20,000 nucleotides of DNA from an uncultured virus (IMG/VR IMGVR_UViG_3300025736_000012) (lineage: Duplodnaviria; Heunggongvirae; Uroviricota; Caudoviricetes). Within the stretch, counting starts at the first letter, position 1; every line of letters begins with the position of its first letter. Positions 14,895-20,000 of this stretch are shown here, piece after piece. Location: IMG/VR virus record IMGVR_UViG_3300025736_000012. One strand, given 5' to 3'. The position numbers and the translations under genes were made by a program. Under the pieces are notes generated by a model. It searched no databases, was not told the DNA's origin, and was given only the letters and a program-made list of their open reading frames with translations.

Positions 14895-15215
14895 TCATAC
14901 TGCACGCCCATCAGTGATGGCGTCACGTTCTACAAGATTCGCGGCGTAGCTGTTTAGCAACTTGCATTTGTCCAAGTTTAACCCACGAGCTAACCGAATT
15001 AAAATTGCAACTGACAAATTACTAGCTAGATCGCGCTCTATGAAAGAGAGATAGTTGCGTGAGATTCCAACTTTTTCGGCCATAACCTGTTGAGACATTT
15101 TAAGCTCTTTGCGCTTTCTTGCCACTATCTCTCCAAATGTGACGTAACGTAGCGGCCTTGATAAATGTGCAGGTGCTCTTGTAAGCCAGCTAGGCAATCG
15201 TTTTCTTGTGCTCAT
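14895..15215 (-). CDS. XRE-family helix-turn-helix regulator
   Basis: 'FGEIVARKRKELKMSQQVMAEKVGISRNYLSFIERD...NLSVAILIRLARGL' is a canonical HTH_3 pattern. GGGAGG RBS. Confidence 0.9.
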   Translation of the reverse strand: MSTRKRLPSWLTRAPAHLSRPLRYVTFGEIVARKRKELKMSQQVMAEKVGISRNYLSFIERDLASNLSVAILIRLARGLNLDKCKLLNSYAANLVERDAITDGRAV

Positions 15216-15408
15216 TCTATCCTCCCCAAAATGTGTATATCGCAGGGAATTGGTCTTTGACTATTTCCCTGTTCTTCGCCTTTCGGCATAATACTCGGCT
15301 TCACTTTGGATATAAAGTGTCACACCAAACAGAACCGAAACGTTAAACTCAAGCATCTGGTATTTTCATTCTGTATTTACCTGGGCTACCATCCCAGGAT
15401 CGGCTCTG

Positions 15409-15582
15409 TGGACTTGACGGGTCTCGAACCCGCGACTTCGTGACGGCCTACCTGAAAATTGTATCATCGTGTTTTAGCATCAACGATGACCAACTATGTA
15501 GCTTCACCTGGCCGGATTATAAGCCCGCGCCATCCACTACTATGGTTTTCGCTCACGTACTCTCCCCCTGAGTTACAAGTCC
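15409..15582 (-). tRNA. tRNA-like RNA with 109 nt in place of the anticodon loop (Ile-like body, internal UAU loop)
   Basis: Acceptor GGACTTG/CAAGTCC + A73; U8A9; D-arm ACTC-AGGGGGA-GAGT; stem CGTGA/TCACG; variable loop AAGTC; T-arm GCGGG-TTCGAGA-CCCGT. No encoded CCA. Confidence 0.8.
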
Positions 15583-15587
15583 AAGTC

Positions 15588-15811
15588 GGTTACAGAAGCG
15601 GGCCGGATTCCCCACTCGGCTCCTATGAGTTTTTACAGGCTCGCCCAACTGCTAGGCTGTGTTCTCACAGCGGACTAAACGCCCTGGAGCTGTCCTCTCT
15701 ATTCACCGCGATTTCCGCGTCTGGAACAGCCCTATACAGCAGTTCGTCTTTACACGGTCACATCTGTACACCCTTACCCGATGACACAACCACACCGCCG
15801 CTTCTGTAACC
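15588..15811 (-). ncRNA. Candidate 224-nt structured RNA domain
   Basis: Perfect 14-bp terminal stem GGTTACAGAAGCGG/CCGCTTCTGTAACC enclosing several nested helices. G-U pairs favour the - strand. Confidence 0.65.
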
Positions 15812-15899
15812 ACTCCCGCGCTGCCGTCTATTCGATGATTCTGCATTGGTCATTAGTCGCGCCTTACTGTGTTTGTGGCGTCACGTACAGGGCAGGAGT
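15812..15899 (-). ncRNA. Candidate 88-nt structured RNA domain
   Basis: Closing stem ACTCCTGC/GCGGGAGT with inner CTGT/GCAG and CGT/ACG pairs and two small hairpins. Confidence 0.45.
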
Positions 15900-15918
15900 T
15901 TATTCGATTTATAATGTA

Positions 15919-16569
15919 CTAATCCCAATAAGCTAGCGGGCTTCCCCATTCAGGATAATGCTCATCTAGCCAGAGCTTGCCGAGACTGCCAAGTGTGTTT
16001 TTTCTCTGATACCAATCTATCCATACACCTCTTTCTTTCTCAGTTGCACTACTGTGGCTCCCTTTCGGTTCTGGTTCAACTCGCTCCGGAGAAACCCAGA
16101 TTGTATTTCCGCAATCCATAACCACGCTTTGCCATTCCCCTGTCCTATAGTCTGAATGCTCCCACCCTAGAACAGGGACAACAGAATAGCTAAAGCGTTT
16201 TACCGCAGAGATATGAGCGTCGAGGTCATAGAAAGCAGCCTTGTAGAAAATGCTACCCCGTTCACGCCCTTGTTCATCAACGAGCTTTGACCACATAGAA
16301 TGATCGGTAGGGATTTTTTTCCATCCCTCTGGTAACTGGACGTTCACAAATAGATCGTCTACCGGCTCGCCATATACAATACCCATCTCCTCAAGTTCTG
16401 CGATCTTGCATCCGTTACATTTGATGGGCAATGTTTCGTTTGCCACAAAGTCACGCTGTCCACGTGCTTCCTGTGCCTCAATACCTCCAGGCGTTGAGGC
16501 GATGGCTGCATTTGCAAAATCTCCCTTCATAGCTGCTGTCAAAGCTGCTGTCAAAGCTGCCATATTCAT
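15919..16569 (-). CDS. Hypothetical phage protein
   Basis: 216 aa, AAGGAG RBS, globular composition ('GGIEAQEARGQ', 'LPEGWKK', 'IFYKAAFYD'). Confidence 0.8.
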   Translation of the reverse strand: MNMAALTAALTAAMKGDFANAAIASTPGGIEAQEARGQRDFVANETLPIKCNGCKIAELEEMGIVYGEPVDDLFVNVQLPEGWKKIPTDHSMWSKLVDEQGRERGSIFYKAAFYDLDAHISAVKRFSYSVVPVLGWEHSDYRTGEWQSVVMDCGNTIWVSPERVEPEPKGSHSSATEKERGVWIDWYQRKNTLGSLGKLWLDEHYPEWGSPLAYWD

Positions 16570-18259: not shown

Positions 18260-18934
18260 TTACTTTTCCTTCTTCTTGGCCTTCATAATCCGCACCTCTA
18301 CTGTCGGCCAGTTGTCCTCTGGTTGGATTCTATCGTCAAGTATGACCGCCCTTCCTGGCGTGATCTGCAGGTTCACTTCTGTGACCAGTAATGGCAGTTC
18401 TGTTTTCCTGGTCTCAATCCCCAAATACTTTTTGACTTGCGTCCCCGTCGTCCAGCCTTGCGCGACGGCGTGGCGGATCGTTTCGACCGGTGTGGGGCTA
18501 TGGTGTAACGCCGTCCAGTACATATCGGGCTTGGCGTCCAGGTTGATACAGTCGGACGGTAGGCCAAACATCTTGGCTAGTTTCGTGACAGTCAGCGCCG
18601 AATAGCCCAGATACCCCGCAATATCTGTCTTTGCGCCGGGGCCCCTGGCGACCGCATCTTTGCTGATACGAATGGCATCGAGGAAAGTGGCGAACCGAGC
18701 TAACTTGTTGCCAGCAGCTTCTTGTTGCAATGCGTCGAGTGTTAGTTCAGGATCGGGCGATGGGGTGAGGCGTTCTAGTTCTGCCCAGAATACCTCTATA
18801 AATTGCATAAATTCGTCTGTGACGTCTGCTGGCTCTTTTTGGGAGAAGGCTACCAGACACTTGGTACTCATCCACTCCCCGAATGCTTGATCTAGCGCCT
18901 TTTTTACATCTTGCTTCCAGTAACTTTTAATCAT
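18260..18934 (-). CDS. Hypothetical protein, possible HTH
   Basis: Likely start at MIKSYW (GAGGG RBS, short overlap with the upstream stop). '[18 protein letters not shown]' is HTH-like. Confidence 0.7.
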
Positions 18935-19406
18935 CTTTTCCCTCTTGTATCTTGATCTCAAACTCATTCGCAATCATCTCCCAAAGTTTCCAAAGAGTTG
19001 GAGTAGCGAGTGAGTGGTTATAACAATCTCTCTGCTCATTGAAAATAAGTGACCTGGTAACTCTTGTGTCATTGTAGGGACAACTGCCACCCGCTGCCCA
19101 CGTCTCAAATGTATCTGGTTGAGGATGACTTTCGCGGTTAAACGCCATCATTTGAGCGCATAAGCCATCAGATATTTTACCATTCCAATTTGCTTGGAGA
19201 ATTGAGAGTAAATTGTATGTTGCTCCCCACAGGTCGGCCCCGCTCAGGTTGGCGTAGCGCAGGTTGGCCCCGCGCAGGTTGGCCCCGCGCAGGTTGGCCA
19301 CGCGCAGGTCGACACCACACAAGTTAATTCTACTCAGATCAGCTCCACTCAAATCGGCTCCGCTGAAATCTCTTTGCCCTTTGTTATACTCTTCTTGAAT
19401 GTTCAT
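18927..19406 (-). CDS. Pentapeptide-repeat protein with unique C-terminal domain
   Basis: '[20 protein letters not shown]...[10 protein letters not shown]' repeats, AGGAG RBS. Confidence 0.9.
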
Positions 19407-19407
19407 G

Positions 19408-20000
19408 TCACTCCTGGCTCATCTCTATTAACTGTCTCAAAACTGGTTTCCATTTACGCCACCAGTCCAGCGCGCCACGGTCCATTTTCGAGATAGTGCT
19501 ATCGTCGAATCCCCACCACTTCTCGATGGAGTGCTGCACACAGCCTATGGCCATCTCATTCTTGGTCCATGAGACGTGATGTTCTGACAAGATAACAGTC
19601 TTTATCTCGTGCCCATTCCCGATCGTCCACAGTAGTTGGCCTCCTTCTAGGTTCGTCCCGTCCAGGTTGGCCACGCACAGGTTGGCCTCGCTCAAGTTGG
19701 CCCTGCTCAGGTTGGCCCCGCGCAGGTCGGCCCCGCGCAGGTTGGCCCCGCGCAGGTTGGCCCCGCGCAGGTCGGCCCCGCTCAGGTTGGCCCCGCGCAG
19801 GTTGGCCTCGCTCAGGTTGGCCTCGCTCAGGTCGGCCCCGCGCAGGTTGGCCCCGCGCAGGTTGGCCCCGCGCAGGTCGGCCCCGCGCAGGTCGGCCCCG
19901 CGCAGGTTGGCCCCGCGCAGGTCGGCCCCGCTCAGGTTGGCCCCGCGCAGGTTGGCCTCGCTCAGGTTGGCCTCGCTCAAGTTGGCCCTGCTCAGGTTGG
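19408..20000 (-). CDS. Pentapeptide-repeat protein, 5' truncated
   Basis: More than 20 A(N/D)L(R/S)(G/E) repeats, frame open to the window edge. C-terminal '[11 protein letters not shown]...ALDWWRKWK' domain. Confidence 0.92.
19663..20000. repeat. 15-bp coding tandem repeat (caggttggccccgcg and variants)
   Basis: Directly visible near-perfect 15-mer array encoding the pentapeptides. Confidence 0.95.

Follow-up and report, generated by a model that had tools for sequence, protein, structure and literature searches.

What is made from a viral transfer RNA (tRNA) gene in which the anticodon loop has given way to a long insert that fits no recognised intron class? The question is raised by a 20,000-nucleotide (nt) stretch of an uncultured virus of the Caudoviricetes (IMG/VR record IMGVR_UViG_3300025736_000012), which was analysed at its full length and is called the window in the following. 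On its minus strand, at positions 15409..15582, lies a tRNA-shaped gene of 174 nt that reaches from G1 to the discriminator base A73 without an encoded CCA, and whose 7-nt anticodon loop is replaced by an insert of 109 nt (15444..15552). The reading which we tentatively prefer, with a confidence that stays well below even, is that the insert is retained and that the product is a tRNA-shaped non-decoding RNA, matured by tRNA end-processing enzymes and serving as a mimic or carrier. A phage tRNA is the origin of the gene, probably one that reads AUA, tRNA-Ile(UAU).

A complete tRNA frame

The frame is recognised by the Rfam tRNA model RF00005, which spans model positions 1-71 of 71 with 40.1 bits (gathering score 29, E 8.1e-7) and places a bracketed insertion of 109 nt at the site of the 7-nt anticodon loop. 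Score and E value put the tRNA frame far beyond chance, and the end-to-end match bears out the proposal of a first-pass annotation, made from the letters alone, that the gene is tRNA-derived. Read 5' to 3' on the minus strand from sequence and Rfam alignment, the gene begins with the acceptor-stem strand GGACUUG (15576..15582), which forms 7/7 pairs with 15410-15416, and continues with U8 and A9, the D arm ACUC/AGGGGGA/GAGU (15559..15573) and the 5' strand of the anticodon stem, CGUGA (15553..15557), which stands in canonical register one base past the D arm. Beyond the insert follow the 3' strand of the anticodon stem, UCACG (15439..15443), a 5-nt variable loop AAGUC (15434-15438), the T arm GCGGG/UUCGAGA/CCCGU (15417..15433), which is the sole T-arm motif of the window, and the acceptor 3' strand CAAGUCC (15410..15416), succeeded by A73 at 15409. 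Acceptor, D, anticodon and T stems are all fully paired, which together with the canonical register argues for selection on the tRNA shape. Thus, the intact acceptor, D and T arms and the stem CGTGA/TCACG around 109 nt all lie where the first-pass annotation had put them.

As it stands, the gene does not have the form of a functional decoder, as the 5-base-pair (bp) anticodon stem closes 109 nt and not a 7-nt loop. It is missed by an Rfam scan of the whole window at gathering thresholds and by ARAGORN with default settings, so that permissive search settings are required to detect it. With introns allowed, ARAGORN reports the gene as c[15408,15582] and calls a tRNA-Ala(ggc) with a 102-nt intron at 30/31; the loop that would result, UAGGCCG, has neither U33 nor a purine at position 37, and the call is weak.

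Fold of the insert and routes of its removal

With the tRNA arms fixed, pair probabilities predict two hairpins within the insert. The first, at 15509..15532 on the minus strand (element nt 51-74; pair probabilities 0.57-0.81), resembles an anticodon arm, with an 8-bp stem, one bulged G and the 7-nt loop CUUAUAA (15517-15523). The second, at 15457..15495 on the same strand (element nt 88-126; 0.65-0.99), has 13 bp, a bulged A and a 12-nt loop, includes the pairing UCAUCGU/ACGAUGA and is present also in the unconstrained minimum-energy fold. A four-way partition of the anticodon region, as drawn previously, is correct in its letters and coordinates but is not the thermodynamically favoured fold and represents one possible fold only; its CCAU/AUGG pairing and its outer GGCC/GGCC pairing are not among the pairs with p>0.5. 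The element as a whole is more stable than its shuffles (z -2.51, 1/200 as stable).

Can the insert leave the RNA by any of the routes that are known? In the region 15000-16000, Rfam at E<=10 reports besides the tRNA only a plant-virus pseudoknot row (15.6 bits, E 8.2), and the insert searched alone yields only a 5.1-bit long non-coding RNA row, results which exclude a recognisable group I intron, self-cleaving ribozyme, transfer-messenger RNA (tmRNA), YrlA RNA and nested tRNA. Group I introns are marked by the catalytic core P3-P8, which is conserved, and measure some 200 nt at least. An insert of 109 nt falls short of this, and Intron_gpI gives no match at E<=10 in either search; the earlier argument that size speaks against group I and group II introns holds, and no such family was matched. 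Introns delimited by a bulge-helix-bulge (BHB) were sought with a purpose-built scan for helix, 3-nt bulge, 4-bp helix, 3-nt bulge and helix, which found 0 full hBHBh' motifs in the element, whereas 200 shuffles gave 4.6 on average and 17 at most. The result agrees with the lack of this motif noted before. Hammerhead, twister, pistol, hatchet and hepatitis delta virus (HDV)-like self-cleaving ribozymes were rejected upon no covariance-model match at E<=10.

Other classes of tRNA-like RNA fare no better. A tmRNA combines tRNA-Ala-like ends, without D stem or anticodon arm, with a tag reading frame. The element has a full D arm and A:U at position 3:70, and neither ARAGORN nor Rfam finds a tmRNA. 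YrlA/Y RNA gives no match in the window at E<=10, and the topology of the element is not permuted; a match to either of these families, named at the outset as a finding that would speak against a novel element, did not appear in the Rfam search. A nested tRNA was discarded, as Rfam recognises no tRNA or tRNA fragment inside the insert and the window has a single T-arm motif, and a coding explanation was discarded, as the open reading frames (ORFs) of the region match no Pfam or PHROG family. Finally, none of the eight 7-base loop choices that can be formed from the insert ends yields U33, which excludes a simple single intron in an ordinary loop.

As no signature of any known removal route is seen, the insert would stay in the RNA. 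In the retained reading, the gene would be transcribed leftward with neighbouring early genes, and RNase P would cut at G1 (15582), followed by trimming after A73 (15409) and CCA addition, steps of established tRNA processing that are expected because the acceptor, T and D arms read by these enzymes are intact. The predicted product is an L-shaped RNA of roughly 175 nt, in which the UAU-type loop would sit on its own 8-bp stem past the anticodon stem, beside the 13-bp hairpin. At this place the loop would be too distant from the ribosomal decoding site, so that the RNA would act by being bound and not by decoding. As a tRNA look-alike it could occupy isoleucyl-tRNA synthetase (IleRS), modification enzymes or host anticodon nucleases; alternatively, it could be a stable tRNA-framed carrier for the insert hairpins or for a 228-nt domain that lies upstream.

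The central loop opens a different route. With C32 U33 and A37 A38 around the anticodon, CUUAUAA has the canonical form, and a 73-nt tRNA results if the insert is divided into a 29-nt and a 73-nt part that are both taken out. The excision modelled in the first-pass annotation removes element nt 31-59 and 67-139 (at 31/32 and 38/39), while a second model, in which the inner stem becomes the anticodon stem, removes nt 26-54 and 72-144 (at 26/27 and 43/44); standard ARAGORN calls each 73-nt product tRNA-Ile(tat). Hence the claim that removal of two arms restores a normal anticodon arm stands, and in the ARAGORN check proposed along with it the excised form is recognised, whereas the native form is missed by default and called as tRNA-Ala(ggc) in intron mode. 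A doubly interrupted tRNA-Ile(UAU), the flanking parts of which are spliced out by a cut-and-rejoin pathway of the phage or its host, for example an endonuclease and an RtcB-type ligase, to give a 73-nt decoder of AUA, is a possible though doubtful explanation.

How specific are the isoleucine features? The tRNA-Ile identity set of E. coli comprises A73, C4:G69, U12:A23, C29:G41, the anticodon and A37/A38. The loop at 15523-15517, the arm boundaries, C4:G69, U12:A23 and A73 are all present as had been described, but position 29:41 is U:A and not C:G. Among 89 phage tRNAs parsed from the loci fetched for comparison, the three bases or pairs A73, C4:G69 and U12:A23 occur together in 12, that is in 3/6 tRNAs for Ile and 9/83 others, the latter including Val, Phe, Lys and Arg; the set thus favours Ile only about four-fold, and the identity argument, sound in its observations, is weaker than originally put. 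When the two halves of the tRNA body were compared by simple alignment with 90 tRNAs, tRNA-Lys(ttt) came closest and tRNA-Ile(gat) next. When the insert is shuffled 5000 times with its dinucleotides kept, 8.6% of the shuffles form a hairpin of the anticodon type (a stem of at least 4 bp with a 7-nt loop Y-U-NNN-R-N), which makes the central loop suggestive but not compelling and leaves room for its being there by chance. Codon usage is rich in AUA, with 95/313 Ile codons (30%) and 16.1 per thousand over 5,890 codons of 19 ORFs, so that an AUA decoder would be useful to the phage.

Splicing would require two excisions, with four cuts and two ligations in all, at sites with no BHB and no group I or ribozyme match. 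That two non-self-splicing inserts are removed by protein-based tRNA splicing, which is undescribed for bacteria or their viruses, is rated as a doubtful proposition. RtcB genes occur in 2/5 of the phage records searched, but no RtcB or endonuclease gene was seen in the 20-kb window. Unexplained introns have been published for tRNAs of Lak megaphages (PMC6784885) and lend this explanation a precedent.

Upstream domain, relatives and the weighing of retention

The element sits in a 703-nt gap between a gene for a 216-amino-acid (aa) protein (15919-16569) and a gene for an HTH_3 regulator (14895-15215), all on the minus strand. Just 4 nt upstream of the tRNA-shaped gene, a structured domain of 228 nt (15586..15813, minus strand) is closed by a perfect 14-nt inverted repeat (15588-15601 / 15798-15811) and has a minimum free energy of -90.9 kcal/mol (z -3.75, 0/200 shuffles as stable). 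The domain could be a structured RNA or a small DNA element, and it may be part of one transcript with the tRNA-shaped gene; between the element and the upstream gene, no sigma-70-type promoter or intrinsic terminator was found on the same strand. A tandem 6-nt repeat, GACUUG-GACUUG (15571-15588, minus strand), contains the acceptor 5' strand at the junction with this domain.

The proximity raises the alternative that the tRNA-shaped part acts above all as a handle for 3' processing of the upstream RNA, with RNase P cleavage at G1 giving the 228-nt RNA a defined 3' end. MALAT1-mascRNA is processed in a comparable arrangement. The short distance to G1 and the perfect 14-bp closing helix of a domain more stable than all of its shuffles suit this idea, but it leaves the 109-nt insert unexplained. 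Rfam does not recognise the domain, a copy with these arms is absent from IMG/VR and a homologue from 93 fetched loci, and a perfect 14-bp repeat could be a DNA-level element. We regard this role as improbable.

Relatives of the element itself were not detected. The search in distant mode of blastn against 50,697 phage records found no homologue, exact-pattern searches of IMG/VR with the 3' half and the D arm found no relative (the 15-nt D-arm pattern hit 20 stretches, only 1 of which is a tRNA, an unrelated tRNA-Val), and neither the element nor the whole 703-nt gap showed similarity to the 93 fetched loci by blastn or nhmmer. No insert-free variant occurs in the contigs of four salt-lake runs where these cover the stretch, and no close relative in IMG/VR. 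The neighbouring 216-aa protein has relatives with 30-58% identity at 7 viral, 35 metagenome and 9 genome-contig loci, none of which carries a look-alike insert.

Expanded tRNA genes are nevertheless present in phages reached in this way. Three of the five viral records searched possess tRNAs (31, 53 and 2 matches), and ARAGORN with introns allowed finds 85 tRNA genes in the fetched tRNA regions, 8 of them with predicted introns. In the phage G004, reached via the 216-aa protein, a 206-nt tRNA-Arg(ACG)-like gene (locus L087 18215-18420, minus strand; Rfam 47.8 bits) has its anticodon loop interrupted by a 134-nt insert and is a clear parallel to the element of the window; joined together, the ends of this insert would form the loop UCACGAA, in which position 33 is C. 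Four further genes of G004 are tRNA-shaped and 128-135 nt long (L087 14287-14419, 15751-15885, 15895-16025 and 16036-16163, minus strand). Between the D arm and a hairpin of the anticodon type they have in common a conserved insert of some 50 nt, which contains an invariant GUUC...GAAC hairpin. The acceptor, D and T stems of these four genes covary, CCA is encoded in 2/4, and Rfam reports none of them at E<=1. The G004 genes show that expanded tRNA-shaped genes are not unique to the window; such expanded or rearranged genes recur in tRNA-rich phages, and none is homologous to the element.

Rearrangement is exemplified by G001, an IMG/VR phage of 105 kb with terminal repeats. A 183-nt tRNA match therein (38.6 bits), with a 110-nt insert in the variable region, was dropped as a parallel because it is better read as rearranged or permuted halves: at L004 1639-1740 (minus strand), a T arm and acceptor 3' strand lie about 25 nt upstream of an acceptor 5' strand (7/7 pairs), a D arm and an anticodon arm with the loop CUUCUAA. 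When the halves are rotated in silico, tRNA-Arg(tct) results for each of the junctions tried, and the locus has the appearance of a tRNA gene that is circularly permuted or broken into halves; its conserved flanking motifs are not linked by a BHB motif. In the same phage, L004 1462-1533 (minus strand) shows a partial YrlA match (32.5 bits vs a gathering score of 69) with a T arm, a closed acceptor hairpin and a D arm, and no TROVE/Ro gene was found in G001. A 182-nt tRNA-Ile(tat) predicted by ARAGORN with introns at L072 was dropped upon no Rfam tRNA match at E<=10. Suppressor-type tRNAs are called by ARAGORN in phage G002 (L090 3335-3410, minus strand, anticodon tta) and in phage G001 (L093 210-283, plus strand, anticodon cta).

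Could the gene simply be broken? A tRNA gene, now non-functional and still undecayed, may have been disrupted by one or two inserted pieces of DNA that form hairpins, or by a tRNA-invading cassette of which a remnant is left. An insert that is a singleton without detectable relative, that folds overall no better than its shuffles and that includes a hairpin of the long, almost perfect kind typical for small palindromic elements fits such an origin, as do the adjoining element with perfect 14-nt inverted ends and the rearranged tRNA halves of G001. It is opposed by the full pairing still found in all four tRNA stems, by the insert lacking a second copy in the 20-kb window, by the lack of a recognised tRNA or fragment within the insert, and by insert ends at which no terminal inverted repeats or target duplication were seen by reading the sequence. 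Furthermore, contigs of four runs, which cover the stretch in part, match it wherever they cover, with no other letters, indels or joints, and one run contig covers 15100-15762 with 0 differences, so that the sequence is at least not a rare variant. Further copies of the insert, which along with terminal inverted repeats and a target duplication would mark a miniature mobile hairpin element (MITE/REP-like), were found neither in the window nor in the 93 fetched loci. On balance, we consider disruption unlikely.

For retention of the insert, the preferred reading, count the complete frame, the absence of a fitting removal route, the two hairpins of high probability and the absence of an ORF of a known protein family, and further the structured 228-nt domain upstream with no separating promoter or terminator and the expanded tRNA genes of G004. 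Several observations weigh against it. The insert alone is no stabler than its shuffles (z -0.97, 37/200 as stable), and as no homologue was found, its pairing is without covariation support. The stretch is present in 12 DNA runs, all labelled salt lake metagenome, with no RNA run listed, a point that applies likewise to the spliced tRNA-Ile. The TROVE/Ro domain is absent from the 21 ORFs of the window and from 5/5 phage records. The tRNA-Ile(tat) obtained from both excisions with the canonical CUUAUAA loop, as well as the heavy use of AUA, fit a real interrupted tRNA at least equally, and a recent insertion into a now-dead gene would equally leave the stems intact.

With respect to the wider setting, the window looks like a phage. 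Large ORFs form a block on the plus strand, and one of them weakly matches a tail fibre. An ORF of 445 aa appears endolysin-like by eye; no family match and no PDB relative were found for it, and as a query it recovered 0 loci in IMG/VR. A minus-strand block then follows with the HTH_3 regulator and pentapeptide-repeat proteins, among them two adjoining ones at 18927-19998 (minus strand; PF00805, E 2.4e-21 and 1.6e-54). The 216-aa protein belongs to no Pfam, PHROG or NCBIfam family, and its Atlas matches are all <0.9. Many start codons are preceded by GGAGG/AAGGAG Shine-Dalgarno-like motifs, and most window proteins are acidic. These start-site motifs, and 10 records in which phages of Brevundimonas, Gordonia and Mycobacterium have relatives of the 216-aa protein at <60% identity, point to a bacterial host.

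Relation to known interrupted and tRNA-shaped RNAs

A literature search of partial coverage returned nothing that describes an insert of this kind. Introns in the tRNAs of Lak megaphages have been termed "enigmatic"; introns in phage tRNAs were unreported before, to those authors' knowledge, and the excision points were set by comparing variants that have the insert with others that lack it (Devoto et al., 2019; PMC6784885). RNA ligases of an archaeal virus may remove tRNA introns, according to a second report (Liu et al., 2021; PMC8651126). As far as the published description of the Lak introns goes, by which alone they were compared, the common denominator with the window is a phage tRNA gene lengthened in the anticodon region by an insert of no recognised intron class. 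The Lak introns are defined against insert-free variants and one may encode a tRNA, while the insert in the window holds no tRNA and no single excision restores a canonical loop.

Bacteria and phages are not known to splice tRNAs by means of proteins, and the one kind of tRNA intron accepted for them is the self-splicing group I intron. In bacteria, group I introns interrupt the anticodon loops of tRNA-Leu(UAA), tRNA-fMet and tRNA-Ile(CAU), the smallest being about 200 nt. They share with the window the insertion inside the anticodon stem-loop of a bacterial-type tRNA gene, but the insert discussed here has about half of the smallest size, matches no model and has no boundary that gives a canonical loop. 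Archaea of the Thermoproteales and Micrarchaeota possess tRNAs with several BHB introns, also at non-canonical positions. The two-insert reading resembles these multiple short introns; however, the element lacks the hBHBh' motif and stands in a bacterial-looking gene context.

Among RNAs that are not spliced, YrlA/Y RNA (RF02553), bound by Ro/Rsr, is likewise tRNA-shaped with the anticodon side replaced by a structured module. Non-decoding tRNA-shaped RNAs of the YrlA type occur in phages. In YrlA, a circular permutation places the ends at the anticodon side and leaves the acceptor closed, while the gene in the window has the normal tRNA topology. tRNA frames serve, moreover, as carriers or handles in engineered tRNA scaffolds, in MALAT1-mascRNA, in the tRNA-miRNA (microRNA) transcripts of gammaherpesviruses and in the stable RNAs C and D of phage T4. 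In these systems, as proposed for the window, a tRNA module gives an attached or embedded structured RNA defined ends and stability, and the engineered scaffolds resemble the element also in that the cargo lies within the anticodon stem. We know of no natural phage RNA among the carrier systems named that has its cargo in the anticodon stem.

The element thus belongs with the poorly understood interrupted tRNAs of phages and adds to the few unexplained ones, of which the Lak tRNAs are the published case, an example that falls outside both the group I and the BHB class. As the claim rests on a single sequence, it is a lead and not a result. If the insert is removed, this would point to a splicing route not yet known; if it is kept, the RNA would represent in nature what the tRNA scaffold is among engineered RNAs, and possibly a decoy in the conflict between phage and host over tRNAs.

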